Shown piece after piece: positions 24,176 to 64,000 of a stretch of 64,000 nt of DNA. The notes below the pieces were generated by a model. It was not told the DNA's origin. It saw only the letters and a list, made by a program, of their open reading frames with translations, and searched no databases. Origin of the DNA: Nitrospirota bacterium (GTDB lineage Bacteria; Nitrospirota; UBA9217); the NCBI GenBank assembly GCA_963732675.1, contig CAVTAJ010000013.1:98137-162136 (forward strand), read 5' to 3'. Within the stretch, counting starts at the first letter, position 1; each line of letters begins with the position of its first letter. The translations under genes and the position numbers were made by a program.

Positions 24176-24221
24176 GCTAAGCTGTTTTAGCAACTCATCT
24201 TTTTACCAGCAAGGAAAACAA

Positions 24222-26088: not shown

Positions 26089-26118
26089 GAAATTTTGCAT
26101 ACCAGGACTAACATCTAT

Positions 26119-26254
26119 CTCGCGCGAAGCCGCAAAGACCGCAAAGAACGTCAAAAACAAAAGGGGTTATTGTTTAAACTCAAGATCTAAAGCCTCTCTT
26201 TGTGCACTTTGCGGCTCAGTGTGGCCCTCTTCTTGGCCATTTGGATTGCGCGAG
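26119..26254. repeat. heptad-hairpin element, CGCAAAG/CTTTGYG word type, carrying the 28-nt core in reverse orientation
   Basis: Left arm CTCGCGCGAAGCCGCAAAGACCGCAAAGAACG. Right arm CTCTTTGTGCACTTTGCGGCTCAGTGTGGCCCTCTTCTTGGCCATTTGGATTGCGCGAG. The termini pair (TCTCGCGCG / TTGCGCGAGA). Confidence 0.85.
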
Positions 26255-26317
26255 AAAAATGATTTTATGCGTGGTTCCGTGCTGTAGTCCTGTGGTTTAG
26301 TGTATGGTGATACGACG

Positions 26318-28289
26318 ATGAAAGGCTTCAACCGCTTTCTCCTCCAATTCCAGCAAGACGTAAAGCAATGGCTTTTCTTCATGCTTTACCTGTCTTTCTT
26401 CCGTATCTCTTTTATCCTCTATTTCCGGAGCAAGATCGAACCCGCCACCGGCCTCTCTGATGTACTGATGACCGCGCTGAACGGGCTCCGCTACGACTCC
26501 ATGGTCTCCAGCTGGTGGATCCTGGTCCCGTTCCTTGCGAGCATCGCAACCGGTTTCGCGACGTTCGACCGCCTCGCTGACCGCATCCGCCAGGCCTTTG
26601 GCTTTCTTTTTATTCTCCTGACCTCCATCGCCTGGGTCTTCACCTTCGTCTACTTCAAGGAATACAACGAGCAGTTCAACTACTTTATTTTTAACCTGTA
26701 CTATGACGATACGAAAGCGATCATGCAGACGATCTGGACGGATTACCATCCCATCCCCGTGCTGATCATCATCAGCGTTATCTCGACCATCGCCTTCTCC
26801 GTGGTACAATTCCTCCTGAAGAGAAGGCCCCGTGCGACGGAGACGATCGCGGCCCGCCAATTTTCCCATTGTCTCACGAATACTTATTTCCCTGCTCATT
26901 CTGGCGCTGCTTATCGTGGCTTCTCGCGGATCGATCGGCCGCAGGCCCGCGCAGCGCAAGGACGCGGCGATCTCGAAGGACGCCTTCCTGAACAAGGCCG
27001 TGGTGAACCCCTACTTCTCACTTCTCTTCGCACTACAGGACCACGTCCTGCAAACCGGCCTGGCGGGACTGGAATCATATTTGCCGGACCGTGACGTACG
27101 GAAGGCGGCGCAGGAACTGTTCAATGATCATCGATCGTTCGACAATCTCGATGCCTATCTGAAAAAGCATGCGAAGGGTCCGAAGACCGTGCCGCCGCGC
27201 CACATTTTCCTCGTTGTCATGGAGAGCTACGATGCCTGGCCGTTCATCAAGAAGTACGCCTCCCTCGGCCTGACGGGAAATCTCACCCATCTCGCGGAGA
27301 ACGGCATTTATTTCGAGGACTTCGTTCCTGCCTCGGACGGCACCATGCAGTCGCTCACCGCGATCATGACGAGCATCCCCTATACTCAAGTTGAGATCAA
27401 TTATCAGTTCACGGCCCGCAAACCCTATCCTTCGTCGTTGTTCGAGACGTTCAAGCGACTTGGTTACCGCACGAGGCTGTTCTACGGTGGGTATCTGAGC
27501 TGGCAACGATTCGGGGATTTCGCCAAGGACCAGGGAGCGGAAGAGATCTACGGCGCGCCGCATATGAGCAAAGGCGTGGCAACCCATGAATGGGGCGTGG
27601 ACGATGAATATCTGCTCGACTTTATCGCGGGCAAGGTGGATGACAGCCAACCGAGCTTCAACCTTATCATGACGACGAGCTACCACCCGCCCTATAATAT
27701 CGATGTGTGGGGCAAAGGCTTTCCATTAAAACAGGTACCGCCCGATATCGCTCCGATGTTCGACAACACCACGAGCCTCAAGATGCTCGGCCATTTGTGG
27801 TACTCGGACAAATGCCTTGGCGATTTTGTGAGGAAGATCGAGGGCAAACTGCCCCGTCCGCTCTTTGCGTTCACCGGCGACCATTACGGCCGCAAGTTCA
27901 TCAATGCCAATCCGGATTTTTTTGAACGGTCCGGGGTCCCCCTGGTCCTGTATGGAAGAGAGGTGCTTCGCGGCATCAAGCTCCCCCGGGGCGCTGCAGG
28001 CACCCATATCGATATCGGACCCACGCTGGTCGAGCTCACTGCTCCAGAAGGGTTCGAGTACTTCTCGGTCGGACAGGACCTGCTCGCGCCGAGGGAACGG
28101 TTTTTGGCCGTCGGCTGGAGGAAGATCATCGGAAAGGACTTTATCTTCGATGTGGGAGGAAAGGAGTTCCATCCACTTCCGGGGAAAGCACTGCCGCAGA
28201 ACCTGCCTGACCCGCAAGAGTTGACGGCAGCCTACGACCGTACCTACGGCATCGGTTGGTGGCGGGTGAGACAAGGGGATCAGCTTTAG
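26318..28289 (+). CDS. LTA-synthase/phosphoglycerol-transferase family membrane sulfatase-fold enzyme; one frame change near 26845
   Basis: N-terminal polytopic part (WLFFMLYLSFFRISFILYF...). Extracytoplasmic alkaline-phosphatase-fold part: PRHIFLVVMESYDAW...DGTMQSLTAIMTSIP...HEWGVDDEYL...FNLIMTTSYHPPY...FTGDHYGR. Confidence 0.8.
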
Positions 28290-28348
28290 AAGAGTGCGAA
28301 AGAATCCTGCGGTCACTTGAACAGAATTACGCGCACGGGTGATAACAC

Positions 28349-28379
28349 AACAGCCCCGGCCTGAAGGTCCGGGGCTGTT
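28349..28379. terminator. hairpin between convergent genes; possible terminator with no clear U-tract
   Basis: AACAGCCCCGG / CCGGGGCTGTT 11-bp stem with a 9-nt loop. Confidence 0.4.
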
Positions 28380-28403
28380 GGAATGAGTACGCTGAGGATC
28401 GCC

Positions 28404-28934
28404 TTACTTCCGGGCTGACAACTTGTTGAGCGCCTGCCTGGCCGAGTCGGCGCCGGGTCCACTCGGCACCAGTTCAAGATAGCGATTGAACTCCTGTATG
28501 GCCTCTGCTTTCCTGTTCAGATCAAAACCCAGCACCACGCCGAGATTGAGGTGTCCATTCGGAAATTTCGGGTCGATCTTGAGCGCCTTCCGGTACTGCT
28601 CCACTGCCTTGTCGAATTTGCCGATCCCGCGATAGCAGGTCCCCTGGTCGACCAGTACGGCCACGTTCTTTGGCTCAAGGGCGAGCGCCTTTTCATAGGG
28701 ATCCACAGCCTCGCCAAAGCGCTGCGCATCCATCAAGGCATTGCCGAGATTGATCCAGGCCTGCGCGTTCTTTGGCGCCATCTTTGCCGCCTGCTCCATC
28801 TGGTCGAGCTGCAGTTGCGCCGGCGGTGCCGCTGGCGCATAATTTAGCTGCTGCTGTTTCTCCTCCTGCTTCTTGCACCCGATGGTCATCAGCATCATGA
28901 ACGACACGACCGCAACAACAATGATTTTTTTCAT
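28404..28934 (-). CDS. TPR-repeat lipoprotein
   Basis: MKKIIVVAVVSFMMLMTIGC lipobox, then TPR repeats (AWINLGNALMDAQRFGEAVDPYEKALALEPKNVAVLVDQGTCYRGIGKFDKAVEQYRKALKIDP). Confidence 0.8.
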   Translation of the reverse strand: MKKIIVVAVVSFMMLMTIGCKKQEEKQQQLNYAPAAPPAQLQLDQMEQAAKMAPKNAQAWINLGNALMDAQRFGEAVDPYEKALALEPKNVAVLVDQGTCYRGIGKFDKAVEQYRKALKIDPKFPNGHLNLGVVLGFDLNRKAEAIQEFNRYLELVPSGPGADSARQALNKLSARK

Positions 28935-29011
28935 GCTTCCTCCTTGCCACAGTTATGGTATCTCCCATCAAGGGAGACGAATTAAAATGATATCGTCTTA
29001 TGTTCCCTGTT

Positions 29012-29329
29012 TTATCTCTTGACGAACGAGCAGCAGTAATCGCTCAGCCTTTTTACTTTCATCGTGAATTTGGAGTTGGCGGCCACTGCAAAGGACTCGC
29101 CGCCCTTGACCGTCATCCAGTTCTTCTCCCCCGGCAGGAGCACGTCAAGCTCGCCGGACATGATCTCCATGATCTCCTTGTCAGTGGTGCTGAACTCGTA
29201 CACGCCGGGCTGCATCACACCGAGGGTCTTTTTGGAGCCGTCGGGAAAGACCACGGTCCTGCTGGTCACCTTGCCGTCGAAATAGACGTTTGCTTTCTTG
29301 ATCACGGTTACATTCTTAAATTCGGACAT
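29012..29329 (-). CDS. ppnP: pyrimidine/purine nucleoside phosphorylase PpnP (DUF1255 cupin)
   Basis: [68 protein letters not shown]... matches the YaiE/PpnP family pattern. Confidence 0.8.
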
Positions 29330-29590
29330 TGAACCCCCTTTTCACCCGCCGATGAATGGTTATAAGATACTATCGATGTTTCCTGCGCAGTTTTGTACCA
29401 CGTTCTTCTGTTTTTGTATAGCATTTTTTATATGCATCATCTGTCTCAGCACCTGGGATTCGATGGATTTGGTGATCTCGTCCGAGAGACTCCTGGGGCA
29501 GGAAAAAGTTGTTGCTGATGTTTACGACATTTCTGTTGAAGCCAAAACGTAATTATTCTCTCGTGAAATGCCTCTCTTGCTTCTCGGAGA

Positions 29591-39119: not shown

Positions 39120-40858
39120 TTAAATGGTTCCGTTGGATGAGTTCAACTGGTTCATAAGCGTCTGCATGTCTGTCGCGGTCAGCCCTGATTTGTTCATTGT
39201 TGACCCCATGAACGTTGTCATCGCAGTGGCCAGCCCACTTGTTCCTGCCGTGGACTGCATCATGGTGCCGCCGCCCATCATGCCTCCACCCATGCCGCCC
39301 ATGGTGATAGACGTGCCGCCCATCATGCCGTTCATGATACCATCCGATGCGTCATTCATCATGGCCGTTATCAGCGCTGCGGGATCGGTCATGCTGTTTG
39401 TCTGGGCATACTGAGACATGGCGGCAATGCAAATGCCGTAGTTCTTCATGGCCGTCGTCTGTACCTCCGGATACTAATTCAGCCGCGTTCATCGGCATCG
39501 TCTGGAGGATGTCAGTGACCATGAAGTAATTGCCCACGGACGTGTTTGCCGCAGCGATGTTCGCGCCGGTCATGCCGCCTGCCATGTTGTTGGCCATGGC
39601 CTGGGCCATTGATGTAAGGGGTGTCATCTGAATGCCGGTGACCGTGCTTCCGCTTGAAATGTTCGGAATGACTGCGGTCATGATATCGCCGGACAACATG
39701 GTCATGGTCGTGCCGGTTGCCAGGTTCGTCATACGAGCCTCCGCTCATCTTGAGCATGACGGGACCGGAATAGGCGCCGAGGGACAGGCTGAAGCTGCCC
39801 ATGCTGTTCGTGGTCCCGCTGGCCAGCTGCGCACCCATGGCGCCGCCAGTCATTGAATATGCCATGACCGTGGAGTCGCTCATCGACCCGTTGAAGACCG
39901 ATCCGCTGACCATCCCGTTCATCATCGTTCCTCCTCCGCTCTGAATGGTGCCGGTCGCCGAGGAAGCTAAGTGGTTCATGAGTGTCTGCATGTCCGTCGC
40001 GGTTACGCCTGACTTATTCATGGTGGATGTGATGAACGTCGCCATTTCCGAGGCGAGCCCGCTTGTTCCCGCCGTTGTGGTCATCATGGAGCTGCCGGTC
40101 ATCATACCGCCCATCATGATCGGCGTACTTCCCATCAAGCCGTTCATGACCCCGTCCGACGCGTCGCTCATCATGGACGTGACCATGCTTGACGAGGAGG
40201 TCATTCCCATGTCCTTTGCGGACTGCGACATGGCGGCGATGGCCATCCCGTAGTTTTTCATGTCCTGGGTTGCCGTGCCGCTCGAACCTGACACCAGCGG
40301 GTTCATGGGCTGTGTATGCAGGATATCAGTGACCATGAAGTAATTGCCCACGGACGTGTTTGCCGCTGCGATGTTCGTGCCGGTCATGCCGCCTGCCATG
40401 TTGTTAGCCATGGTCTGGGCCATGGAGGTAAGCGGGGTCATTTGAATTCCCGTTATGGTACGTTCCGCTGTCACCGAGGGAATGACAAGCGGTCATCACG
40501 TCGCCGGGAGACATGGTCATGGTGGCTCCCGTTGCTTCATCTATATAGGATCCACCGCTCATCTGGAGCATGACAGGACCGGTGTAAGCGCCCATCGTCA
40601 TGCTGAAATTGCCCTGCGAGTCCGTTGTTCCACTGGCCACCTGAGTGCCCATGACTCCATTTGTGATGCCGTATGCCATTACCGTTGCTCCGCTTACCGG
40701 CCCTTTAACCGCTGTGCCGCTGATGGTTCCGCTATTTGTAGCAGGAGTTGTCCCGTTGTCGCTGCCGCCGCTCCCCCTCCGCAACCAGAAAGCAGCGACA
40801 TGGACCCGATCAAGAGCGTGAGAGCCAAAATTACGCGTAGATTTCTGTTTCTTTTCAC
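39120..40858 (-). pseudogene. about 580-aa extremely Met-rich lipoprotein made of two tandem units of about 285 aa; interrupted as sequenced by about 4 frame changes (about 40795, 40480, 39735 and 39452)
   Basis: GTG at 40858 follows AAGGAGG. VKRNRNLRVILALTLLIGSMSLLSGC is a lipobox. Four overlapping ORF-track fragments (40404..40910, 39512..40474, 39352..39732, 39120..39449) read through collinearly. Unit 1 (ISGTAVKGPVSGATVMAYGITNG...TGIQMTPLTSMAQTMANNMAGGMTG...MKNYGMAIAAMSQ...) is repeated as unit 2 (VSGSVFNGSMSDSTVMAYSMTGG...TGIQMTPLTSMAQAMANNMAGGMTG...MKNYGICIAAMSQ...). Confidence 0.75.
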
Positions 40859-40915
40859 TGTAAGCCTCCTTATTGATTTTGTACTGAGTACTTTTTTTCA
40901 CAATTAACAACCATT

Positions 40916-44292: not shown

Positions 44293-44430
44293 GTTAAAAT
44301 CGGGAGCATGTTCCATTTAAAACGAAGGGCTGTCTTCATTCTGTTCGGACAATGCTTTGTTCAGGAAAGAGGAAGATAGTCCTTCGTTTGTATCTATGCG
44401 GTGACTCAATGTGAAGAAGGAGCTGCTATT

Positions 44431-45355
44431 GTGAAGAGAGAACAGGACCGACCCGAAGCGCGTAAGAGATATTTTTCACCTGCATTACTCCTCATTGGTT
44501 TGATCCTCTGCTTTTTTGTATTTCCCGGAAACGTCTTTGCCGGCCTTATCCTCGACGCGGAGCTGCGGCTCCAGTATGAGGACAACGTAGTCGGCCTTCT
44601 CTCGGACCAGCAGAAGGGCGGTGTCAGTACCGGGGCAGGAATAGCCGGCAGCACGGCCATGCAGGCCAGCAGCATGGGGGGTATGGGAGGCGGAAAGAGC
44701 AATTATACCGGATCAAGTTCGGGCTCCTCCCAGTCTCCGGGAGATTTTTCAGCGACCCTTTATGCCGAGGCCGGAGGATACCAGGATGTGGGCAGGGATG
44801 CGGAAGTATTCGCGAAAGGCTTTGCCTCACATACCTCCTACGACACCTACACGGACCTGAATTCGAACATCGGAGGCGTCAGCACCGGCATTTCTGTAAT
44901 TCTCAGTGACCTCCTCTCCACCCGCATGTCGGTCCTCGGAAAGATCAAGCGTTTTGACGACAGCCAGCGCGAACAGCACCGCCTACGCAGGGAACCTCAG
45001 CCTGAAGGAAAAGCTCACACCCTCGTTCTGGCTTCGGGAGTTCGGCCAGTATGAAAAGAACAGCGCAGATACATCTGTTTTCAGTTATACCGGCACGACC
45101 ATCGGCATCGATGCGGGCTATGCATTCACGACGAAGACCCGCGCAACACTCGGCTACAGCTATCTCGTCCAGAAGTATGACGAACCTTCCGGCGCCGAGA
45201 TGAAGACGCAGACCGCTTACGTGAGCGCTGAACAGACAGTGAGGAAGAACTGGGCTGTTTCCGGGGAGTACGATCTCCAGCTAAGCAAGGAGAACGTGAC
45301 CGGGACGAGCGCGACGAACAACATCTTCTCGCTGGCGCTGCGGTACAGTTATTAA
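44431..45355 (+). CDS. outer-membrane beta-barrel protein with a Met/Gly-rich loop; one frame change near 44970
   Basis: GTG at 44431 follows GAAGGAG. Signal peptide ...LLLIGLILCFFVFPGNVFA. Loop: AGSTAMQASSMGGMGGGKSNY. The barrel has alternating beta-strand periodicity and the terminal signature NNIFSLALRYSY. Confidence 0.65.
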
Positions 45356-49742: not shown

Positions 49743-50753
49743 ATGAACGCTGAGAGACCATACCTTCGCATCCTGCGGTATTCGGTACAGGCCGCTTTTT
49801 TTCTGCTTACGCTGTTTGTCGGCTACCGGTTTTATCAGTTCGTCCAGCACTTCGAAGCGGCCGGCCGGCCCTTTGTCCAGAGACCGCCGTCCGTTGACGC
49901 TTTCCTGCCCATCGGCGGGCTCATGGCCTTCAAGTACTTCATCCTGACCGGCATTGTCGAGCCGGTGCATCCCTCCGGCTTCATCATGTTCGTGGCGATC
50001 CTCGGCGTTTCCCTGGTCGTGAAAAAGGGCTTTTGCGGCTGGATCTGCCCTGTCGGCACGCTGTCGCAGTATATCTGGATGGCAGGTGAGAAGGTATTCG
50101 GCAGGAACTTCCGCATCGGCCCCTTTACGGACCTCTCGCTCCGCTCGATCAAGTACCTGCTCCTCGGGCTCTTCGTGTTCCTGATCGGGATCGCCATGCC
50201 GCCGAACATGATGGCCCTGTTCTTTATCGCCGACTATTACAAGATCGTGGACGTGCGGATGATGAAGTTCTTCACCGAGATGACCACGCTCACGATGTGG
50301 GTCCTCATCGCGCTCGGTGTGCTCTCCCTGTTGTACAAGAACTTCTGGTGCCGCTATCTCTGCCCCTACGGCGCGCTCCTCGGTTTGCTCAGCCGCTTCA
50401 GCCCCTTCAAGGTCCGGCGGAACGAAGAGAAGTGCATCCACTGCCACGCCTGTACGCAGCACTGCCCCACGCTGATCGATGTTGAGAAAAAAGAGGTGGT
50501 GAAGTCCGAGGAATGTTTCGGATGCCTGACCTGCGTGAGCCATTGTCCCGCGGAGGGCGCGCTCGAACTCACTGCAAGCGCCGGGAAAAAGGTCGGCGTA
50601 GTAAAACCCTGGCTGTTCCCCATTCTCCTGATCGTGCTTTTTTATCTCGTGATCGGCATCGGTGTTGCCACTGACAAGTGGCATTCGAAGATACCCAACG
50701 AGGATTACCAGGTGCTTATTCCGGAAGTGCAGAAGGAATATATGAAGCGGTGA
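49743..50753 (+). CDS. NapH/MauN-type polytopic membrane protein with 4Fe-4S ferredoxin-type motifs
   Basis: KKGFCGWICPVGTL, NFWCRYLCPYGALL, CIHCHACTQHCP and CFGCLTCVSHCP, with flanking TM helices. Confidence 0.8.
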   Translation: MNAERPYLRILRYSVQAAFFLLTLFVGYRFYQFVQHFEAAGRPFVQRPPSVDAFLPIGGLMAFKYFILTGIVEPVHPSGFIMFVAILGVSLVVKKGFCGWICPVGTLSQYIWMAGEKVFGRNFRIGPFTDLSLRSIKYLLLGLFVFLIGIAMPPNMMALFFIADYYKIVDVRMMKFFTEMTTLTMWVLIALGVLSLLYKNFWCRYLCPYGALLGLLSRFSPFKVRRNEEKCIHCHACTQHCPTLIDVEKKEVVKSEECFGCLTCVSHCPAEGALELTASAGKKVGVVKPWLFPILLIVLFYLVIGIGVATDKWHSKIPNEDYQVLIPEVQKEYMKR

Positions 50754-52170: not shown

Positions 52171-52283
52171 TTGACTGTTTCGAATATTTCCATTTTTAGT
52201 ATAGCATAAATTCCTTCCGCTCATGTCAATGAAGCCGCTCACTCAAAACTTGACAAAATTCCGATGTCGATTATAGTTATCGT

Positions 52284-53139
52284 ATGCAAAGAGAGAAATT
52301 AAGCCTTCACCATAAAGACCTCCTTTATGCAAGGCTCCGTACGCTCACGGTCCCCCTTTCCGAATATACCTTTCCCAACCTGTACCTGTTCCGCGGAATA
52401 CACGATTATGAGGTGATCGTTGACAAGGAGATCTTTGTCAGGGGTACAACCTACGACGGCCATTCCTATCTTATGCCGACCACGGATGTTCGTTCGCTGG
52501 ATAGCGGGTATCTCAAGGACATGATGCGCGGGGTCGATTTTCTCTTCCCTGTCCCCGAGGAGTGGCTGTCCTGTTTTAGTACCGACGAGTTCGAGATCAC
52601 CTTTGCTGAAGGCGACGCGGATTATATGTACACCGTGGAAAAAATGAGCACCCTGACAGGAAGGAACCTGCACAAAAAGAGAAATCTGCTGAAGCAGTTC
52701 CTGGAGAGGTACACGGCACGAGGCCCGGCCCCTGACCAATGACCGGCTGGACCAGGCGCGGACCATCCTCGCGGACTGGCTTGCAACTACGGAGATGCAG
52801 GCCGATGACACCGACTTCGGTCCCTGCCTGGAGGCCCTCGACCGGTACGAGGAGCTCATCCTCTGCGGCGGGATCTATTACGCCGACAACGAGCCCGCGG
52901 GATTCGTGCTCGGCGAAGAGCTGAACGAAGCGACCTTTGTGCTGCACTTTGCCAAGGCCAGGACGAAATTCAAAGGTGTCTACCAATACATGTTCAACAA
53001 CTTCGCGAAGATCCTGCCGCCAAAGTACAAATACCTGAACCTCGAGCAGGACCTTGACAAGGAAAATTTGCGGGTCTTCAAGTCATCCTATATCCCCGAT
53101 GTGATGCTCAAAAAGGCCCGGGTGAGGCTGAGGGCCTGA
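52284..53139 (+). CDS. DUF2156 protein (MprF C-terminal, aminoacyl-phosphatidylglycerol-synthase-like fold); one frame change near 52725
   Basis: LSEYTFPNLYLFRGIHDYEV...TYDGHSYLMP...DYMYTVEKMSTLTGRNLHKKRNLLKQFLERY continues in the +1 frame as ...LDQARTILADWL...GGIYYADNEPAGFVLGEELNEATFVLHFAKARTKFKGVYQYMFNNFA...NLEQDLDKENLRVFKSSY. Confidence 0.65.
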
Positions 53140-53462: not shown

Positions 53463-53478
53463 TGGTATGGTAATTGCT
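53463..53478 (+). promoter_or_regulatory. sigma54 (-24/-12) promoter TGGTATGGTAATTGCT upstream of the REC-PilZ gene
   Basis: Matches TGGCAC-N5-TTGCW at TGG.A.G....TTGCT, with the canonical GG-N10-GC spacing (GG 53464-65, GC 53476-77). It lies 69 nt before the ATG at 53547. An NtrC-type activator is encoded next door. Confidence 0.7.
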
Positions 53479-53546
53479 ATAAATTGTCTAAGTTGCTCTG
53501 TACTCAGTACTCATCCAAGATATGGAAACGCCGGGAGCCCTGGTTA

Positions 53547-54329
53547 ATGAAAAGAATATTGATCGTTGATGATGAAAATTTGATCCGGTACTCCCTTTCC
53601 GCTTCGCTCCGGCAGGACGATACCTATGTCAAGGCTGTTGCATGCGGAAAAGACGCGATCGACGAGATAGACCATATCTTTTACGATCTCTGTTTTCTCG
53701 ACGTTAACCTCCCTGACATAAATGGCCTGGAGATCATGAAGTACATCAAAAAATCTTCGCCAGCCACGAAGATCATTATTATGACGGGGGGCGTGGTTGA
53801 TGAACCTGAAATGCTGCAATCCATTCAGGCGAATGCGAATCTGCTCCTTCCCAAACCCTTTGATCTGGACCGCATCAAGCTGTTCGTGGATCGAATCATC
53901 GGTCAGGGAATGTCCATACGCCGGTCGGAAGAGCAGTCTTACAGCGGGAGCGAACACGAACCATTCGAAAACTGGCTGAGGGAAGACAAGAGACTGTACC
54001 AGAGAAAGGCAGTCGAACAGTGTACTACCTGTTCCGTGATCGTCGCAGAGAACGAACAGGGAGAAAGGAATTTAACCGCCAGCGTGCTCGATATCAGCGA
54101 TGCCGGAATGCGCATCCGGACTGATTATGGGCTCAAACCCGGACACCTCCTCCGGGTCAGCAACAGCCCTGCCCTGTCTACAGGGATTGTGCGGTGGAGC
54201 AAGAGCGCGGGGGCCGAAAACTCCTACCACGCAGGGATCCAGTTCGTCATGCCGGAGAATCCATCCAACAGCTCCTTTTTACAGGCGCACGACAGCTCCC
54301 CTTTACAGGCGCAGGCTGATGGAGACTAG
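53547..54329 (+). CDS. response-regulator receiver domain fused to a PilZ-like C-terminal domain
   Basis: REC: MKRILIVDDENLIRYSL...YDLCFLDVNLPDINGLEIMKYIKK...IIIMTG...LPKPF. PilZ-like: LYQRKAVEQCTTCSVIV...ASVLDISDAGMRIRTDYGLKPGHLLRV. Confidence 0.75.
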   Translation: MKRILIVDDENLIRYSLSASLRQDDTYVKAVACGKDAIDEIDHIFYDLCFLDVNLPDINGLEIMKYIKKSSPATKIIIMTGGVVDEPEMLQSIQANANLLLPKPFDLDRIKLFVDRIIGQGMSIRRSEEQSYSGSEHEPFENWLREDKRLYQRKAVEQCTTCSVIVAENEQGERNLTASVLDISDAGMRIRTDYGLKPGHLLRVSNSPALSTGIVRWSKSAGAENSYHAGIQFVMPENPSNSSFLQAHDSSPLQAQADGD

Positions 54330-54427: not shown

Positions 54428-55816
54428 CTACTCTAATCCGTATTTCTTCACCTGATATCGCAGAGTATCATAGCTGACCTGCAGGAGCTTGGCCGCCTGT
54501 GCCTTATTATTTTTCGTCCGCTCCAGCGCCTGAACGATCAGCCCCTTTTCCACTTCATCGAGCGATATGCCGGTTTCGGGGAGCGCGAACTTCGCGACCG
54601 GTGGTTGGCTGACGATGCCTGATTGACCGGTCAACCAGTTCGGCAGATGCTTCGGGAGGATCTCCTCCGCGCTTTCCAGTACCACAAGCCTTTCCACAAG
54701 GTTCCGCAGCTCCCGGACATTTCCCGGCCATGCGTAGGATTCCATGAGTTTTTCCGATTCCGGCGAGAAGCGTTTTATCGATTTCTTATTATACCGCTGG
54801 GCGATGTGCGAGAGAAAATAGCCGGCCACGAGCGGAATGTCCTCTTTCCGCTCCCTGAGCGGGGGCACATGCAGATAGAAGATGCTCAAGCGGTAGAACA
54901 GGTCCATTCTGAATTCGCCTTTTTCCACCGCTTCCGAGAGGTTCCTGTTCGTCGTTGCTATGACCGTTACATCGACGGGGATCTCCTCACTCCCGCCGAT
55001 CGGCCGTACGGTCCGCTCCTCCAGCACCCGCAGGAGCTTGCCCTGAAGGTTCTGCTTCATGTCGCCGATCTCATCGAGAAGGATCGACCCGCCCTGCGCC
55101 ATTTCAAACAAGCCCTTCTTGGCCGACCGGGCATCGGTAAACGAGCCCTTTTCGTATCCGAAGAGCTCGCTCTCCAGGAGGGTCTCGGGCAGGGCCACGC
55201 AGTTCAACTTGATGAACGGGGAAAACCCCGACCGACCCTCATCACGGATCAACCGGTGGGCATACCGCGCGAACAGTTCCTTCCCGGTCCCGCTCTCCCC
55301 GGTGATGAGGAGCGTGGAGACCGAGGCCTCGGCCATCATCTCTATTTTTGACTTTAATTCCCGCACTGCCGCTGACCCGCCGATGATCTCCTTCTCAAAG
55401 ACCTCTGACTGCACCTTTCGGAGATAATCGACCTCCTGTTTCAATTGTCCTTTTTCAATGATGTTGTGGAGAACGATCTTGACCTCATCGACATTGAACG
55501 GCTTCGTGAGATAATCCGCGGCACCAAGCTTCATCGCCTTCACCGCGGTCTCCGCCGTGTCGTCAGCCGTCAGCATGACGACCTGGAGCGGGAGTTCCTC
55601 CTTGACGATCTCCTTCAGGACATCGATGCCGTTCCGGTCGGCGATCCGGATATCGAGGAGGACGACGGCGGGGGACCAGGCCTTGATCTTGCTCACGATA
55701 TCGTCCGCATCGGTCGCTGTTCGGACCTCGTATCCACCGTTCTTCAGCACCCGCGAGAGCATGGAAATAATGAGCTCATCATCATCAACGAGAAAGATCT
55801 TCTCTTTGTTTTTCAT
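54428..55816 (-). CDS. sigma54-dependent NtrC-family response regulator (REC-AAA+-HTH)
   Basis: REC: IFLVDDDELII...VVLLDIRIADRNG...KPF. AAA+: TLLITGESGTGKELFARYAH, GSILLDEIGDM, and GAFTGA-like ESELFGYEKGSFTDA. C-terminal Fis-type HTH: NKAQAAKLLQVSYDTLRYQVKKYGL. Confidence 0.9.
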   Translation of the reverse strand: MKNKEKIFLVDDDELIISMLSRVLKNGGYEVRTATDADDIVSKIKAWSPAVVLLDIRIADRNGIDVLKEIVKEELPLQVVMLTADDTAETAVKAMKLGAADYLTKPFNVDEVKIVLHNIIEKGQLKQEVDYLRKVQSEVFEKEIIGGSAAVRELKSKIEMMAEASVSTLLITGESGTGKELFARYAHRLIRDEGRSGFSPFIKLNCVALPETLLESELFGYEKGSFTDARSAKKGLFEMAQGGSILLDEIGDMKQNLQGKLLRVLEERTVRPIGGSEEIPVDVTVIATTNRNLSEAVEKGEFRMDLFYRLSIFYLHVPPLRERKEDIPLVAGYFLSHIAQRYNKKSIKRFSPESEKLMESYAWPGNVRELRNLVERLVVLESAEEILPKHLPNWLTGQSGIVSQPPVAKFALPETGISLDEVEKGLIVQALERTKNNKAQAAKLLQVSYDTLRYQVKKYGLE

Positions 55817-57651
55817 ACCGTGTGTACCCTTTCCGGATGTGTTGCCATGAGGCTGATTTTAAAGGTGACGCCTCCGCTTGCGTTCTTTTCGATGCTGATC
55901 CTCCCCCCATGGTCCTCGATCAGCCGTTTCGAGATCGCCAGCCCCAATCCGGTCCCTTTTGGTTTCGTCGTGAAAAACGGATGGAATATCTTGTCCATCA
56001 CCGCAGCGCTTATTCCCTTGCCCGTATCGGATATTTCCACCAGAACGACCTGAGCTGCCGCATCGAACAGGGTTTTCATGGTCAGGGTGCCGCCGTCCTG
56101 CATGGCGTCAACGGCATTCAGGATCAGGTTCATGAATACCTGCTTCAGCTGCATGGGGTCGGCCGTGATCATCGGAAGCCGGCTGTCGAAATCCTTCACG
56201 ACAGCGATCGTCCGCGAAGACCCCGGCGTGCGGGACTGATCTTGCAACACCAGGCCTGAAACGCCGGAAAGGACCTCGTTCACATCCGTTTCAGCGAATC
56301 GGGGCCGGGGCGGTCGGGCAAAACTGAGGAGACCCTGTATTAACGATTCTATCCGCCTGATCTCGTCGATCACTTTCACGAGGACGCCCCGGTCCTCTTC
56401 CGGCATGTACGGCTCATTGGAGAGGACCTCGATCGACACCTTGATGCCGGCAAGGGGGTTCTTGATCTCGTGCGCGAGACCGGCTGCCAGCTCTCCCACC
56501 ATCTTGAGCTGTTCAGCCCGCTGCATTTTTTCCTCCGCCTCTTTCCGCGCGGTGAGGTCGCGGTCGATCGCGAGAATATATTTATGGCCCCCGAGTTGGA
56601 GCAGGGTGGCGCTGATCTCGATCGGGAACAGCGTGCCGTCTTTTTTTCGATGTTCGGTCTCTACCTCGAGCACTTCCCCGTTGAGTATCTGCCTGATCCT
56701 CTCCGGCGCGCCCGCAGCGAACTCAGGCGTGTCGAGGCTTGCTATGTGCATCCCCAGGAGCTCCTCGATCGTATAGTCGTGCATCGCCGCCGCGGCCGGA
56801 TTTGCCGCAACGATCCTGCCTGCCTGCGCCCCTTCGGCATCCAGGATAAAGATGGAATCCGTCGCGGTTTCAAACAACAGCCGATAACGCTTCTCGCTTT
56901 CCTCGATTTTCTGCAGATGTTCCCTGAGCGATCCCGCCATCGCATTAAATCCGACCGCCAGTTCCGCGAACTCGTCCCGGAGCCCTTCGATCCGGTACTC
57001 CAGGTCGCCTGCCTTCAATTTTCTCGTTGCATCGAGGAGGACATGGATCGGCCCCGTAACGCCCCTGATCACCGTAATGGCCAGTACCGCGATCAGCAAG
57101 GGACCGGCGGCGACGAGCAGGATCAGGAAGATCCTCGTCTGATGCACTTCCCGCAGGGCGTTTTCAGTCCGGTTGTTGAGCCTCTTGGTGGTCATGACGA
57201 TCATGGTATTGATCTTGCTGATGAGAGAACGACTGATGAGGCGGGCGGCTTCCTGTTCTGCCTGAAACCGGCGGGACTTCGCCTTCAGGGTCAATACGCT
57301 GCTTACTGCATGGCCATAGTGGTCGATCTGCTTTTGCAGATCACGAAGTTCCTCCATCACGAGCTCGTTATGGTGACAATTAAAACAGGTGTTGATGGAA
57401 TCCCCCATATCGCGTACGTGCCTGGAGACCGCGTCGACGCTCTCCGCGTTCTGTACGCCTTGCGAATACAGGTCCGCCTGTACCTCGCGAATATTCAGCA
57501 AAAGGCGCTCTCTCAGTATCTCAACCTGATGGGACGTGATAATTTTTTCGAACCGCGATGCGTTGGCATCGATCGCCTTGATGAGGTAGATACCCCCCAG
57601 GAGAAAGAGCAGGGACACGACACCGAGGACTATGATGATCTTTTTTTTCAT
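55813..57651 (-). CDS. sensor histidine kinase: periplasmic helical domain with a CxxCH haem-c motif, then HAMP, PAS, HisKA and HATPase_c
   Basis: TM1 IIIVLGVVSLLFLLGGIYLI. Periplasmic segment of about 135 aa containing NTCFNCHHN (codons at 57373-57387). TM2 IFLILLVAAGPLLIAVLAITV. H-box LAHEIKNPL. N and G boxes: NLILNAVDAM...DTGKGI...GTGLGLAI. Confidence 0.85.
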   Translation of the reverse strand: MKKKIIIVLGVVSLLFLLGGIYLIKAIDANASRFEKIITSHQVEILRERLLLNIREVQADLYSQGVQNAESVDAVSRHVRDMGDSINTCFNCHHNELVMEELRDLQKQIDHYGHAVSSVLTLKAKSRRFQAEQEAARLISRSLISKINTMIVMTTKRLNNRTENALREVHQTRIFLILLVAAGPLLIAVLAITVIRGVTGPIHVLLDATRKLKAGDLEYRIEGLRDEFAELAVGFNAMAGSLREHLQKIEESEKRYRLLFETATDSIFILDAEGAQAGRIVAANPAAAAMHDYTIEELLGMHIASLDTPEFAAGAPERIRQILNGEVLEVETEHRKKDGTLFPIEISATLLQLGGHKYILAIDRDLTARKEAEEKMQRAEQLKMVGELAAGLAHEIKNPLAGIKVSIEVLSNEPYMPEEDRGVLVKVIDEIRRIESLIQGLLSFARPPRPRFAETDVNEVLSGVSGLVLQDQSRTPGSSRTIAVVKDFDSRLPMITADPMQLKQVFMNLILNAVDAMQDGGTLTMKTLFDAAAQVVLVEISDTGKGISAAVMDKIFHPFFTTKPKGTGLGLAISKRLIEDHGGRISIEKNASGGVTFKISLMATHPERVHTV

Positions 57652-58156
57652 GATTAACGGGGAACGTTACGGCACCTTGCTGCGAGGAGATTATACAACC
57701 AGAACAGTACTGCTAGCTCTGTAGTTTTGGGCCATCCGGTTTCGTGCGGTTTGCTCACCCACTGAACAACGGCGTTCAGATCGACGGGCTGGTCTCATAA
57801 CTCCTTTGAAGGGTCTCATCCGGGACACGTCTGTGATGAAGAGCGTAAAACTTCGTTATCTTAACGCAAATGTAACATCCTGTCAATATACCAAAATATC
57901 GCTGTCAAGCCAAAGCTAAAATGTCCTTTTTTGGATGTGTCCTGCAGCCCTGTTCTAGTTTTAACCTTTGCTTTTTCCGGAGTTACCATGGCACACTCAC
58001 GTTTTTAAATGGTAGAATAATAAAAAGTTTTTGGCTTAGCATGAAGAACCTTCGGGGTATTGAAAAACCCCGGATAAAGGTATATCCTGGGACGATTCTT
58101 CTGCTCCTACGGATTCGAGCACGTAACGGCATTAGCAATATATGATGTCATTTTGT

Positions 58157-58188
58157 TTGAAAAAAGTTGACTTTAGTACTATAGTACT
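58157..58188 (+). promoter_or_regulatory. sigma70-type promoter candidate (TTGAAA-N17-TATAGT) for the OmcS-like gene, overlapped by a perfect 14-bp palindrome AGTACTATAGTACT
   Basis: -35 at 58157-58162, -10 at 58180-58185, palindrome at 58175-58188. Confidence 0.5.
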
Positions 58189-58262
58189 GATATGAAGAAG
58201 TAAACAGGGTAGTTTATGATGGACCTTCCATCATGACCGTAATTAAATTCAGGGAGGACGAT

Positions 58263-59456
58263 ATGAAAATATCAATAATGTCTTTTGTTCTCGTGATTGT
58301 GATTGCCGTCATACCTTATGGTTTGGAAGGAACGGTGTATGCGTTTCATGAAAGTGCAGATAGTTGTCCGGGTTGCCATAACTGGTCTGCTTCTTCAGGA
58401 ACATCATCGGGAACAGCAACCAGTGGTCAAATAATATCTTCGGGCGCAACAACAGTCGCAAGTCATCCCTATAATTTGATAGGCAGCGACCAGAGTTCTA
58501 CCTGCCTCAGATGCCATGCTGCACCATACAACCAGGTACTTTCGCAAGAACACTACGTCATGTCCATCATCACGAACATTACAAGTACTGCCATGCCGGC
58601 GGGGAGGACTCCGGGTGGAGACTTCGCCTGGACTAAGGTCGGCAACGCTGAAGTAAATCCTGCTTCGTTCCACGGGCACAACATTGTAGCTCTCGATTAT
58701 GGGCTCGAGGCCTCTGCTGATTATGTCGAAGCCCCGGGCGGTTCGTATCCTTCATCCAGCCTGGCATGCTCAAGCTGCCATGACCCGCACGGCACCGGTG
58801 TATCCTACAGACGACTGGGCGGGGTCGGTTATTCTTCGAAGAGCGCGCCGGACAAGGCATTTACCAAATCCGCCCCTATCGCGGTCGCTCCCTCGAAATA
58901 TAACAGGTCAGAAGCATCAACCGATACACGCGTGGCCTATGGGAAAGGAATGTCCGAATGGTGTAAGAATTGCCATCCCCTGGATCAATCGCATCCCTCT
59001 GGAGATTACTCAAAACTCACAAAGGATGTCGTGTCAAATTACAATACGTTTATCAATACCAATAACTATGCTGGTAAACAGGAGACCGCTTATACTTCCC
59101 TTGTTCCTTTTGAAGAAGGGACAGACGATATTGCAATCCTCTCCTCTCATGCGAAATACGACAATTCTCAGATGGGCGGGCCGAAGACGGGAAATGAGAA
59201 CGTGATGTGCCTCACCTGCCATAGGGCACATGCATCGGGCTGGCCCCACATATTTCGGTGGAACTCCAAAGGTTTTTATATGGTCGTAGATGGCGCATAT
59301 CCTGGTATCGATGCGGGCACTGAAGGCGGGAAAGACCCTCAAGTCAACCTCGGCTATACCCAGGCGCAAACACGTGCCGCATACTACGACCGGCCTGCGT
59401 CAAAGTATGCCTCAATGCAAAAAAGCCTCTGCAACAAATGCCACTTGAAAGACTGA
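58263..59456 (+). CDS. omcS: OmcS-family hexahaem c-type cytochrome (homologue of the nanowire-forming cytochrome)
   Basis: ATG at 58263 follows AGGGAGG. Signal peptide ...GTVYA|FHES. Six CxxCH motifs: CPGCH, CLRCH, CSSCH, CKNCH, CLTCH, CNKCH. Long collinear matches to G. sulfurreducens OmcS as I recall it: GHNIVA.DY...APGG.YP...CSSCHDPHG, YR.LGG.GY, AVAPS.YNR.EA.T.TRVAYG.GMSEWC.NCH, SL.PFEEGT.D, C.CHRAHASG, AAYY.R...K.....Q..LCNKCH.KD. Confidence 0.85.
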   Translation: MKISIMSFVLVIVIAVIPYGLEGTVYAFHESADSCPGCHNWSASSGTSSGTATSGQIISSGATTVASHPYNLIGSDQSSTCLRCHAAPYNQVLSQEHYVMSIITNITSTAMPAGRTPGGDFAWTKVGNAEVNPASFHGHNIVALDYGLEASADYVEAPGGSYPSSSLACSSCHDPHGTGVSYRRLGGVGYSSKSAPDKAFTKSAPIAVAPSKYNRSEASTDTRVAYGKGMSEWCKNCHPLDQSHPSGDYSKLTKDVVSNYNTFINTNNYAGKQETAYTSLVPFEEGTDDIAILSSHAKYDNSQMGGPKTGNENVMCLTCHRAHASGWPHIFRWNSKGFYMVVDGAYPGIDAGTEGGKDPQVNLGYTQAQTRAAYYDRPASKYASMQKSLCNKCHLKD

Positions 59457-59618
59457 TATAAGCAGAATAACAAATCAGGCTCTTGCAAAAGTCTTGCTGA
59501 ACTGTTTCAGTATCTCAAATATCCCGTTCGGTACGATATCCTAAAACAAGTTCAAAGTGACGGCAAAAGACGTTCGCAAGAGGCTCGACAGTACGAACGG
59601 GAATGTTCAAAGAAACCG

Positions 59619-60528
59619 CTATTTGAGCGGAGTGAACATCTGAATCCGGCTGTTGGCCCTGTCCGCGACAAAGAGATCTCCGTCCTTATTGACGCAGATC
59701 TGCGCGGGATATCGGACCGTGCCTTCCTTCCACCCCAGACTCAGCAACCTGTTCCGAAAGGTGCCGTCCTGTCCGATCGCGACGATACCGCCGCTGTTTT
59801 GATCGCTGATGAAAAGCATGCCCTTTTCATCCGCAACTATGTTCGAAGCAAACTTCAAATCTTCTTTCATTGTTCCGGTGATCGGGGCAAAGGCACTGGG
59901 GTCCTTGGCATTGGAATAAACCATCGCCTTGACGCCGTCAGTTAAGAAAACCGTCCCTTTCGAGTTGACGGCCAGGTCGGTAATAAATCCGTACTCCTTC
60001 GGGAAGTCGATCTGCCTCTGAAATTTTCCCGTCCGCATCGAGGACCAGCACCCTCCCTGCCAGGACATCGAGCAGATAGATGTTGTCACCGCCGTCAAGA
60101 TCGATGCCGGCCGGAACGACCATGCTCTCCGTCGGCCATCCCGCAAGTTCGACATATTGCTTAAAAGCGCCTTCAGGCGTGAGCCGGACAACCTTCCGTT
60201 GCCGCTCGTCGAGGACGAAAATGTCTCCTTTTGAATTGATCCTGACCCGTACAGGATAGACCACCTGCGGAAGTTTTATTTCTTTTCCGCCCTTGGGCTC
60301 CCCGTTCTGCAGTGTAAAGAGAACGAGCCTCCCGTTGCCGGTGTCGGCGACCACCAGACGATCATCTTTGCAGGCGATCCCTTCCGGCTGGTTCAAACCA
60401 TTCCCTTTTTCATCGGCATACGCCGAAAACGCATATTTGATTACTACCTGCTCCGCCCCGAATGCATGCAGCGGCAGCAGTAAAACGATCATCAGTACAA
60501 TCAAACGGCTCATTATCGTTCCTCGCAT
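59619..60528 (-). CDS. secreted NHL-repeat six-bladed beta-propeller protein; one frame change near 60028
   Basis: Signal peptide MSRLIVLMIVLLLPLHAFGA. Repeated blades: PEGIACKDDRLVVADTGNGRLVLF, VRINSKGDIFVLDERQRKVVRL, GIDLDGGDNIYLLDVLAGRVLVLD, LAVNSKGTVFLTD, IVADEKGMLFISDQNSGGIV, ICVNKDGDLFVADRANSRIQMF. Confidence 0.8.
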
Positions 60529-60532
60529 GTTC

Positions 60533-61887
60533 TTACCTCTTATATTCCACGTGGCATTGAGTACAAAGTTCGGACGTCGTCGGCGAACGGAAGCATATGC
60601 TTGAATTCCGTTCCGTGCGCCCGGTGACAGCTCAGGCACTGTACCGTCAGGTTCTTGTTTCTTTTATCGATGACCTTGTCACCGACCGGATGGGTCGAGT
60701 GTTTCATATAGTCGTGACACTGTGCCGCAGAGCTCGATGGTCGATCGGCTGGGTGAACAGCAGCACATTGTCGGAAGCATGGGGAGAATGGCAGACAATG
60801 CACTTCCCCTCCTTTATCGGTTCATGTTTCGTCATCGAATTTTCCTGGCGCTGGATCGTATCCGCATGGCATGTCCCGCAGAGCCGGACCGGAGGCGCCT
60901 TCAAGAGCGGCTGCTCTGCGGCGACGCATGAGGGTTGTGACAATTGAGGCAGCCGTCTTTCCCCATGACAGGCCAATGGAGGCGGTTTTTGGCGAACATT
61001 TCGTTGACCATCGTTGTTGTGGCATCCCCTGCACAATTCAAAGCCCTTTTTCTTCAGGGCGAGCGGATTGGGAGACGTCGGCGCTTTCATGGCACAGACT
61101 GCACGTCTTATTGGCAAAGGGCGGATGGGCCGTATTATAGATCATCCCGGCCTTGTCGGAGCCGTGCACGTTGTGACACATGGTGCAGCGGCTATTTGCC
61201 CACGGGATAATTCATCGTGCTGTTTGACGAAGAGGGGTTTATCGATCTGGTGGCATTCTTTGCAGAGCCCGGGCACCTCGTTTTTCAGCAGGGCCGCGGC
61301 CTTCGGGGAGCCATGCGGATTGTGGCAGTTGATGCACCCTTTCTCCACCGGGTCGTGCTTGAATTTGACCTTTGCAATCGCCTCCACCTTTTCTTTATGG
61401 CAGCCAAGCACAGTTCATTGCCGCCTTGCGCAGGTTGTTCTTGTTGTCCGAGGCGTGCGGGTCGTGGCACTGGACGCATTTGCCTTCGAGAGCGACCTTG
61501 TGCGTGCTGCGCGCGTCCTGCGGCAGGATCCTGGCATGGCACGTGAGGCAGATCCGTGCTCACCTCCGCCGACAACTGTTTCGGGATAATTCGCGCGCGT
61601 GCGGGCTGTGACACGGCGATACAGCCCGGTTTTTACAGGGCGTGTGGACCGAAGGGCTTTTTCAGCTTGTCCTCGAATTCCGCGTGGCACGTCAGGCAGA
61701 CCTTTTGCTGGGCGCCCGGTTTCAGCCTGAATTTACTCTCGGTACTTTCTTTGCTGACCGCTGTGTTCTTGTCGCCTTGGTTGTTTTCGTCCCCTTGCTT
61801 TGCCGTTTCGCCGCATCTGCCTGCGGCGCAACACAGAGGCACATCACCGAAAGGGCCAATATGACGCATATTGGTTCGTAATTTCAT
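60533..61887 (-). pseudogene. multihaem c-type cytochrome of about 450 aa with about 16 CxxCH in c7-like modules; the reading frame changes at least about 10 times as sequenced
   Basis: ATG at 61887 follows GAGGAG, 22 nt after the stop of the upstream cytochrome. CxxCH-bearing fragments lie in all three minus frames: CLTCH, CVQCH, CINCH, CKECH, CTMCH, CSLCH, CRGCH, CLNCH, CGTCH, CIVCH, CLSCH, CTQCH. Confidence 0.7.
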
Positions 61888-61909
61888 ACCATGCTCCTCT
61901 ATTTCGTTT

Positions 61910-63880
61910 TTACAAGATGTGACAGTCATCGCACGATCTGCCCGCAAAGGGGGCGATGCACGTGTTTTTTAAAGAATTTCGGGTCCTTCGACGCATGCGG
62001 GTCATGGCAGCTCTTGCAGTTCATGACAGACGCGTCAATGTAGATGTGGGCGCTTCTTGAACGAATCCCCTTTCACGTCGTGGCACTGAGCTGCAGAGAG
62101 CCAGGACGGCTGGCGAGCAGCCTTCTGCTGCGACGACATGTGGGCATGTGGCAGATCAGGCAATCGCCCGCTGCCGGCGGGTGCTTGTTTTCCTTGCCCA
62201 TCCGCTCCTTCAGTTCTTTGTGGCAGGCCAGGCACATATCGGGGGACTGCGCCAGCAGCAGTTTGGCGAGTTTCGTCTGATGGGGACTGTGGCACTTCGT
62301 GCACGAGACCGTCCTCGACAGGCTTATGCCTGTCCGCGGACGACTTGAGCGCTTACTCTGGTTGTATGGCAGCCAGACAGAGGACGCTCTGGTTCTTGAC
62401 GATCATGCCGTCATTGTTGCTGGCATGGGGGGTGTGGCAACCCATGCAGAGACCTTTTCCGAAGGGCGGATGGACGATATTGTCCTTCACCTCTTTCATG
62501 AGGTCGCCGTGGCACTGTGCGCAGAGTTTCGGTCCTGCGCCTTGAGCAGTTTTCCCTCGGTCTGAGCCGTGGCCGTTATGGCAGGAGAAGCACTGCGCCG
62601 TCCTGTACGGGTTTATGGACGGTTTTTTCACAAAGCCGGTCTCCGCGTCGTAATGGCACGAGTAGCAGACCTTGTCCATCCTGTCTTGGCCATCAGCGGG
62701 GCAAATTCGAACCGTGAGGGTTGTGGCACGTGGTGCACATCGCCTCGGCGAAAGGCGGATGGACGGTGCTTGAATTTCTGCGCCTCCTTTACTTTCTCAT
62801 GACAGGTGAAGCAGAGGCTCGCGCCTTTTGCAGTGAGCAGATGTTCGTTCTTGGCGGCATGCGGCGAATGGCAGGAGACGCCCTCCTGCTTCAACGGCCG
62901 GGTGGGGGAAAGCGACCTTTGTTCCTTTGTCCGCGTGACAGTCGAAGCACAGAGCTTATTGCCGCTTTTATCAGGAGCTTCGGGTTCTCCGAGGCATGGG
63001 GGTTATGACACTGGACGCACATCCCATCCTTGAAGGGCGTGTGCTCATGGTGCCGCCCGCCTTGAGATCGTCGCGCGCATGACACTGCTGCGCAAAGATC
63101 GCCGATGGCGCCTTCCTTCAACTGAAGGGCTTGCCCGTGTTCGGCGCGTTATGGCACATGTCGCAGCTCCCCGTAACGACCGGGTTATGCGCGCTCGCCT
63201 TCATGAGCTTCGGCTGGTCCGAGGAGTGGGGATTATGGCAGACCGTGCAGGATTTCGTCTTGAACGGGATAGTTGCCGTGCGCCTTCTTGAACGCGGAAC
63301 CGCCGCTGTCGTGGCAGGACAGGCAGAGGGGCGTCTCAGCCTTTACCAGGAGGTTCTTCTGGTCCGCGCTGTGGGAAAGGTGGCACGCGCCGCACCCCTT
63401 CGTATTCAGGACCGCGTGCATTGTTTTCTTTTCATAGTTCTCTTTCTTGTGGCACTGAAAGCACAGGGCCTTGCCTTCTGCCTTCAGCAGATGGTCCGTT
63501 TGAGAGGCATGCGGATTGTGGCAGTCCGTGCATTTTCCCGCCTTTCAGGGCGGTATGCACGTTCGGCTTCATGCCCATTTTGTCCTTCGTGTGACAGTCA
63601 GGCAGAGATCGTTCCCTATCTTCTTCAGGATCAGTTTGGCGACAAGGCCGTGCCGAAGATGGCAGCCTTCGCACTTCTTCTCCTTCACTACCGCATGAAC
63701 ATTTTTCATCCCCAGGTACTTGTCCGTGAATTTGGTGTGGCAGTCCAGACAATCCTTGCGGGCGAATTTTTTCCGCGCCGCCGAACCGGTCCCCGCGAAC
63801 AGGACAATGCAGCACAGGAGCAAAACCGCCCCGAGAACTCTGAGTCCATTGTTTGTTAGCACGATCCGCATCACAATCAC
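61910..63880 (-). pseudogene. multihaem c-type cytochrome of about 655 aa with about 25 CxxCH; the reading frame changes at least about 12 times as sequenced
   Basis: Signal peptide MIVMRIVLTNNGLRVLGAVLLLCCIVLFAGTGSAA, then CLDCH, CEGCH, CFQCH, CGACH, CLSCH, CTVCH, CDMCH, CVQCH, CFDCH, CFTCH, CTTCH, CYSCH, CFSCH, CAQCH, CMGCH, CTKCH, CLACH, CLICH, CKSCH and CDDCH, spread over overlapping ORF-track fragments in different frames. Confidence 0.7.
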
Positions 63881-63901
63881 CCCATAAATAATTTTGAATC
63901 G

Positions 63902-64000
63902 CTAATTCCCCGTTCCCGATAGGTAGACCTTAACGTCGCCGGCGGCTCTCAGCTTGTGGAACCAGTCATCTATGGCCTTTACGACATCGTCGTTTGAGAC
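63902..64000 (-). CDS. 3-prime end of an upstream gene in the cytochrome operon; the C-terminus is possibly SurA/PpiD-like chaperone/PPIase (weak)
   Basis: My reverse translation gives ...VSNDDVVKAIDDWFHKLRAAGDVKVYLSGTGN*. The ORF is open to the window edge. Confidence 0.4.
   Translation of the reverse strand, partial: VSNDDVVKAIDDWFHKLRAAGDVKVYLSGTGN

Follow-up and report, generated by a model that had tools for sequence, protein, structure and literature searches.

The 64,000-nucleotide stretch of contig CAVTAJ010000013.1 that was analysed in this work (positions 98,137 to 162,136, referred to as the window) ends in a gene for a hexahaem c-type cytochrome that resembles OmcS of Geobacter, followed by a converging set of genes. 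The question that this locus raises is whether it represents the OmcS module of extracellular electron transfer with its companion (osc) cluster, or instead an unrelated multihaem protein, a decayed gene set or a cytochrome that does not polymerise. The region is probably an OmcS/osc system of a Nitrospirota bacterium that consists of the hexahaem cytochrome, the distal companion block and a putative haem-sensor kinase/sigma54 regulator pair, where the frameshifts seen in the companion genes are mostly assembly errors. The features of the region are listed in Table 1.

The hexahaem cytochrome and its host

The hexahaem gene encodes exactly six CxxCH motifs in a single frame (at 58365, 58503, 58767, 58962, 59208, and 59430). 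The gene is preceded by a ribosome-binding site (GGGAGG) 7 nt 5' of the ATG. A Sec-type signal peptide was read directly from the N-terminus of the protein, MKISIMSFVLVIVIAVIPYGLEGTVYA followed by FHESAD, where cleavage falls between VYA and FH. The mature FH matches the family consensus AFH in the alignment.

The protein was searched against all PDB chains using phmmer and was matched to OmcS (6ef8_A) with an E-value of 6.1e-71. The alignment consists of two collinear stretches between query residues 33-397 and chain residues 7-407, with 43% identity over 343 aligned columns. The six motifs match those of OmcS and 110 full-length relatives in position. The AlphaFold2 model, which was built without haem from 121 sequences, has a pLDDT (predicted local distance difference test) of 83 and a pTM (predicted template modelling score) of 0.84. 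Foldseek against the PDB returned 6ef8_A as the sole match of this model (E=3e-29, template modelling (TM) scores 0.75/0.73). Pfam assigned only generic haem-motif families to the protein, and Pfam has no OmcS-specific model. The OmcS family consists of 4019 proteins at a cut-off of E<=1e-5. The closest relatives of the window protein are the metagenomic proteins P0001 (93% identity) and P0002 (72%), while the remainder are at most 54% identical. The neighbour-joining tree places the window protein and these two relatives in a clade of their own, apart from OmcS. Six His residues outside the motifs (H29, H137, H139, H176, H244, and H323) are invariant or nearly so among the 110 full-length relatives.

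By sequence and predicted fold, the product of this gene is a secreted OmcS-family hexahaem cytochrome. It shares with OmcS (GSU2504; PDB 6EF8/6NEF) a length of about 400 amino acids, the mature FH, six CxxCH in the same order and spacing, and conserved distal His residues. A mere coincidence of CxxCH motifs in an unrelated multihaem protein was also considered and was ruled out by the alignment and the fold, so that its probability is negligible. Full-length collinearity, long identical blocks outside the motifs, the E-value, the TM score of 0.75 and the size of the family all speak against it. The sequence-only reading of this DNA had described the signal peptide and the six motifs, and both are present. 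It had also quoted blocks of collinearity with OmcS, and every one of them is found in the full-length alignment to chain A of 6EF8. The conserved spacing and the long aligned blocks remove the objection that only the CxxCH motifs coincide.

The contig belongs, by gene identity and synteny, to Nitrospirota and not to Geobacter, which agrees with the different genomic background that had been suspected. A housekeeping-type block of the window (24123-29341) is syntenic with two Nitrospirota metagenome-assembled genomes (MAGs), L005 (1-4752) and L003 (1-2277), at 72-89% identity. The sigma54 regulator is 72% identical to its counterpart in a third Nitrospirota MAG, L010. The distance between the housekeeping block and the OmcS-like gene is at most 10 kb in L003 and L005 and 30 kb in the window.

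The companion genes and the published osc block

Four genes on the minus strand converge on the hexahaem gene. These are the tail of a peptidyl-prolyl isomerase (PPIase) gene, a 26-haem cytochrome gene, a 16-haem cytochrome gene and a gene for a secreted NHL-repeat beta-propeller. The sequence-only reading had proposed a converging operon of the same four parts, with about 25 haems in the larger cytochrome and about 16 in the smaller. All four parts were identified and the haem counts hold; the three complete genes are not open frames as given, a feature that reading had left unmentioned.

The large cytochromes were recovered using a purpose-written, frameshift-tolerant protein-to-DNA alignment of the window against orthologues from start to stop. 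The corrected 26-haem gene is 75% identical to its orthologue in L150 and was aligned with orthologues from L150, L084, L085, L086, L012, L066, and L005, and all 26 CxxCH were recovered. The corrected 16-haem gene reaches up to 76% identity with orthologues from L150, L084, L085, L086, L012, L066, L008, and L063, and all 16 CxxCH were recovered. Both giant cytochrome genes are collinear with those of the Geobacter-lineage locus L012. A protein search with the stitched 26-haem query was dominated by CxxCH words and missed known close relatives. The stitched NHL protein matches Pfam NHL with an E-value of 3e-20, and full-length orthologues of 40-57% identity adjoin OmcS-family genes in L005, L008, L012, L026, L057, L060, L063, and L066. 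The peptide at the window end, VSNDDVVKAIDDWFHKLRAAGDVKVYLSGTGN followed by the stop codon, corresponds to the extreme C-terminus of the 585-amino-acid proteins whose genes immediately precede the 26-haem gene in L084, L085, L086, and L150. The L150 protein carries Pfam Rotamase_2 (E=1e-25), and the tail is also matched by tblastn with the L066 orthologue.

The recurrence of this arrangement was examined in a scan that covered one genome for each species, with the OmcS-family alignment as query, and that yielded 80 loci and no relative above 50% identity. Closer relatives were added by a scan of metagenomes, including L084, L085, L086, and L150 (72-75% identity). The order PPIase (about 550-620 amino acids, no haem), 26 CxxCH (about 660), 16 CxxCH (about 450) and NHL (about 300) recurs beside an OmcS-family gene. 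It is found in L005 (Nitrospirota), L008, L012 (Geobacter), L026 (Anaeromyxobacter), L057, L060, L063, and L066. The same four-gene order is exhibited by L084, L085, L086, and L150, of which L086 and L150 hold a full OmcS-family gene; L084 has only a copy cut off by the end of its contig, and in L085 no such gene was seen. A 26-haem orthologue lies no more than 10 kb from the OmcS-family gene in about 33 of the 80 genome loci, and a PPIase does so in about 40. The objection that NHL and multihaem genes are never syntenic with omcS-like genes therefore fails.

This arrangement has already been published for Geobacter (Shen et al., 2025, Cell Chem Biol 32:239; summarised in PMC13194489 and bioRxiv 10.1101/2025.11.06.686851). 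In PMC13194489, the omcS-companion (osc) operon of G. sulfurreducens is described as providing OscH for folding, OscE-G for secretion and OscD for filament morphology. The same source gives oscI as GSU2495 and oscJ as GSU2494. OscD is a beta-propeller and OscE-G are channel-like. According to bioRxiv 10.1101/2025.11.06.686851, a block of eight genes, GSU2500-GSU2493, occurs together with OmcS-like hexahaem genes, and GSU2495 has 26 haems. The literature connects this block with the maturation and secretion of OmcS. The L086 locus matches this block gene for gene. It consists of the OmcS-like gene, a 490-amino-acid beta-propeller, proteins of 724, 212, and 404 amino acids, a 585-amino-acid protein in the PPIase position, the 26-haem and 16-haem cytochromes, and the NHL protein. 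The 212-amino-acid protein is the counterpart of an LpoB-like lipoprotein of L150. The upstream genes of L150 encode proteins of 750, 214, and 1583 amino acids, and a propeller is absent within the stretch examined.

The window shares with GSU2500-GSU2493 the PPIase, the 26-haem OscI, the 16-haem OscJ and the terminal NHL gene in the same order by an OmcS-family gene. However, it holds only the four distal genes, with the PPIase as a tail, and its OscI-, OscJ-, and NHL-type genes are frameshifted in the assembly. Its hexahaem gene also stands beyond the NHL gene, in convergent orientation, and not upstream of the block, a layout common to L005, L060, and L066. The sequence-only reading had called the locus complete. 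This was too strong, as the window stops inside the PPIase gene and does not contain the genes of the OscD-G type (propeller and channel) that stand upstream in orthologous clusters. By these findings, a published module of extracellular electron transfer, OmcS with its osc genes, is extended to a lineage of uncultured Nitrospirota.

Disrupted frames, the missing His16 and the weight of the reading

The minus strand between 60.6 and 64 kb has no long open reading frame (ORF), and none of the three complete companion genes is open as given. Thirty-four intact CxxCH are scattered over three frames of this strand. Single-base corrections to the frame number 18 in the 26-haem gene, 12-17 in the 16-haem gene and one in the NHL gene. 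The two large cytochromes together take about 32-35. All disruptions are single-base indels, and there are no larger deletions. All 42 CxxCH are recoverable: the few broken motifs are broken exactly at a shift, and none is lost by substitution. Replacements at columns that are invariant among intact orthologues number 8 of 214 in the 26-haem gene and 1 of 87 in the 16-haem gene, compared with 0-5.5% in individual intact orthologues. The NHL gene is intact in L001, a 93%-identical contig, and the window has one extra base near 60021. Indels can be placed at the nucleotide level only in this gene, through L001, because the metagenomic 26-haem orthologues reach only 74-80% amino-acid identity.

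Frameshifts also interrupt genes in other parts of the window, namely hisC (with two shifts), hisH and the genes for a THUMP-type methylase, an ABC-F ATPase, and sulfatase-like membrane, outer-membrane-like, DUF2156-like, and CZB-like proteins. The ABC-F and sulfatase-like genes each correspond to a single intact ORF of L005 at 77-83% identity and lie in two frames in the window. Scattered indel errors are present across this assembly. A Met/Gly/Thr-rich, repetitive, secreted-looking protein at 39123-40913 (minus strand) is spread over several frames with near-duplicate segments and probably carries further frameshifts.

Consensus errors of a long-read metagenome assembly are most likely the source of the companion-gene frameshifts, as judged from comparison with orthologues, and the companion genes are probably intact in the organism. 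Assembly error is preferred because housekeeping genes are frameshifted as well, all motifs are recoverable, invariant residues show no excess of change and only single-base events occur; thirty-five neutral indels should have brought many more replacements at invariant columns. The alternative is that the companion genes are real pseudogenes, where the osc cytochromes and the NHL protein have been lost and an orphan OmcS-like gene kept. Three observations favour it. About 35 disruptions are packed in 3 kb, and the adjacent hexahaem, kinase, and regulator genes have zero frame disruptions. PMC13194489 reports an oscJ frameshift in a laboratory-evolved Geobacter strain. The third is a similar pattern in an independent long-read MAG locus, L060 (MFD10007.bin.2.36). 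There, 20 frame corrections are needed over the NHL, 16-haem, 26-haem, PPIase, and next genes (11450-19200), and the OmcS-like gene with 11 kb of flank is intact, which mirrors the local pattern of the window. However, decay would not be expected to spare every CxxCH from substitution, to leave invariant columns without excess replacements or to proceed by single-base indels only. The frameshifts in essential-pathway genes elsewhere likewise point to assembly quality rather than to selection. Pseudogenes are therefore considered quite improbable, and assembly error is retained as the explanation. Giant multihaem genes in long-read metagenome assemblies can carry so many single-base indels that gene callers would overlook them, and surveys of cytochromes would be biased accordingly.

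The second matter is the formation of a filament. In OmcS, His16 (CEGCHTMH, three residues past the first haem motif) reportedly ligates haem 5 of the adjacent subunit, a result attributed to Wang and co-workers in 2019. OmcS subunits are described as linked by inter-subunit His coordination (PMC12307469). The window protein reads CPGCHNWS, and a Ser is aligned with His16. Geobacter-lineage proteins that were examined, such as P0107 of Geomobilimonas luticola, keep the His of CxGCHTMH, whereas the window protein lacks it. The first haem motif of the window protein is followed by a low-complexity loop rich in Ser, Gly, and Thr, SASSGTSSGTATSGQIISSGATT (58389-58460, precursor residues 43-65). 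This loop replaces the OmcS segment on the C-terminal side of His16, was modelled with a pLDDT below 50, is present in the 93% relative and is shorter in the 72% relative. The 72% relative does not conserve the sole His of the loop, and among the closest relatives this loop contains no conserved His or Met. The window protein also differs from OmcS in having a His (H137) in place of Lys108, in its separate clade and in its Nitrospirota host.

Among the 110 full-length relatives, 38 have His16 and 72 lack it. The position of H137 is a His in all 72 sequences that lack His16, and a Lys or Arg is found there only in six sequences that bear His16, OmcS among them. The 72 relatives without His16, the window protein included, might use H137 to complete the ligation of haem 5 inside the same subunit. 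This is a hypothesis only, as the sequences behind the co-variation are not phylogenetically independent, and we consider it rather unlikely. If true, a large and mostly uncharacterised branch of the family would form filaments without a metal cross-link or would form no polymer, and the osc machinery would serve something other than an OmcS-type wire.

The hexahaem protein may or may not polymerise into an OmcS-like filament, as it lacks His16, the inter-subunit haem ligand. The sequence-only reading had spoken of a nanowire cytochrome, which overstates a protein that lacks His16 and groups apart from OmcS. The protein could instead be an OmcS paralogue that forms no polymer, to be compared with OmcT, OmcJ, and GSU2501/OscC, and that acts as a monomeric periplasmic or surface electron carrier, so that no filament arises from the locus. 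These three proteins of unknown function are also hexahaem members of the OmcS family and are likened to the window protein by description, not by sequence; GSU2501-type genes are constant companions of the eight-gene block. The replaced His16, the low-complexity loop of low pLDDT without a conserved His or Met in the closest relatives and the separate clade speak for such a paralogue. However, the gene adjoins the machinery to which the folding and secretion of OmcS filaments have been ascribed, and all 72 full-length relatives without His16 keep the remaining OmcS architecture. Some of these relatives lie near osc blocks, in L150 and in L005 (where the copy is N-terminally damaged). OmcZ filaments, moreover, assemble without inter-subunit haem ligation (PMC12307469). 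A non-polymerising carrier is thus a possibility to be taken seriously, although we consider it the less probable reading. Homology to OmcS should not be equated with a nanowire, as the window protein and most of the close relatives examined lack the inter-subunit His.

Several points weigh against the reading of the region as a Nitrospirota OmcS/osc system with mostly artefactual frameshifts. Indels occur at about 1 per 90 nt in 60581-63600 and at about 1 per 2-5 kb elsewhere. The indel sites exhibit no enrichment of k-mers, methylation-type motifs or homopolymers, and the region has no nucleotide-level repeats, so that the difference in density is unexplained; our guess would be a mixed-strain consensus over fast-evolving cytochrome genes. 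The artefact status of the frameshifts rests on comparison with orthologues and not on reads. The window represents the distal half of an osc block, of which the upstream half, with OscD-G-like genes, would lie past 64000 and outside the window. Orthology to GSU2493-2496 would follow from gene order, haem counts, domains and the Geobacter, Citrifermentans, and Geomonas loci, not from G. sulfurreducens sequences. To these are added the Ser at the His16 position and the statement in bioRxiv 10.1101/2025.11.06.686851 that wire formation is known only for OmcS itself. The region 57652-58262 upstream of the hexahaem gene has no convincing sigma54 -24/-12 match. Two points deserve to be recorded, the absence of the inter-subunit His and the exceptionally dense local cluster of single-base indels.

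Under the OmcS/osc reading, the hexahaem protein would be exported by the Sec pathway and then loaded with six bis-His haems. The PPIase would aid its folding, and the protein would then be passed to secretion components that would lie beyond the window (OscE-G in the literature). The 26- and 16-haem proteins could act as periplasmic conduits or stores of electrons that feed the hexahaem protein, and the kinase/regulator pair may govern expression.

The two-component module and other features of the window

Table 1. Coordinates and characteristics of the features in the window
Feature	Position	Strand	Remarks
Two-component module	54428..57651	-	Read divergently from the hexahaem gene
Sigma54-dependent response regulator	54428-55816	-	Assigned by Pfam domains
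Sensor histidine kinase	55813-57651	-	Pfam HAMP-PAS-HisKA-HATPase; one CxxCH (CFNCH) at residue 89 in the periplasmic part
Sigma70-like promoter candidate, TTGAAA-17-TATAGT	58157..58185	+	Consensus scan, 10/12; about 78 nt upstream of the hexahaem gene; weak
OmcS-family hexahaem c-type cytochrome gene	58263..59456	+	Intact ORF, 397 codons
Secreted NHL-repeat beta-propeller, about 302 amino acids	59619..60528	-	Position of the last osc gene (GSU2493 position); one +1 frameshift near 60021-60030
16-haem c-type cytochrome, OscJ/GSU2494-like, about 450 amino acids, signal peptide	60533..61887	-	12-17 single-base indels
26-haem c-type cytochrome, OscI/GSU2495-like, about 655 amino acids, signal peptide	61899..63871	-	About 18 single-base indels, 61914 to 63600
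PPIC-type peptidyl-prolyl isomerase chaperone tail, OscH-like	63902..64000	-	Last 32 codons and stop; remainder past the window end
Frameshifted genes outside the locus	1560-2743, 3576-4221, 22749-24030, 24147-26088, 26288-28286, 44380-45352, 52254-53136, 921-1236

In 11-12 of the 80 genome loci, orthologues of the regulator (50-72% identity) and of the kinase are found no more than 10 kb from an OmcS-family gene. The module is a recurrent neighbour, and its assignment to the locus, as had been proposed, stands. The CxxCH at exactly residue 89 is kept in 10 of 11 orthologous kinases beside OmcS-family genes, which suggests a haem-based sensor with a conserved haem-c sensor domain. The analysis also shows that this pair of a putative haem-binding sensor kinase and a sigma54 regulator travels with the OmcS module. 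No Rfam match to a riboswitch, of the GEMM type or any other, was found in the 610-nt leader region (57652-58262) between the kinase and hexahaem genes.

A receiver-PilZ response regulator (Pfam Response_reg and PilZ; region 53463-54329, plus strand) adjoins the sigma54 regulator. A -24/-12-like sequence, TGGTATGGTAATTGCT, is found at 53463-53478 just upstream of the receiver-PilZ gene; such two-mismatch matches are no commoner in the window than expected by chance. A membrane protein of 336 amino acids (49743-50753, plus strand) contains two ferredoxin-type CxxCxxCxxxCP motifs, resembles NapH or a polyferredoxin by eye and lies a few kb from the cytochrome locus.

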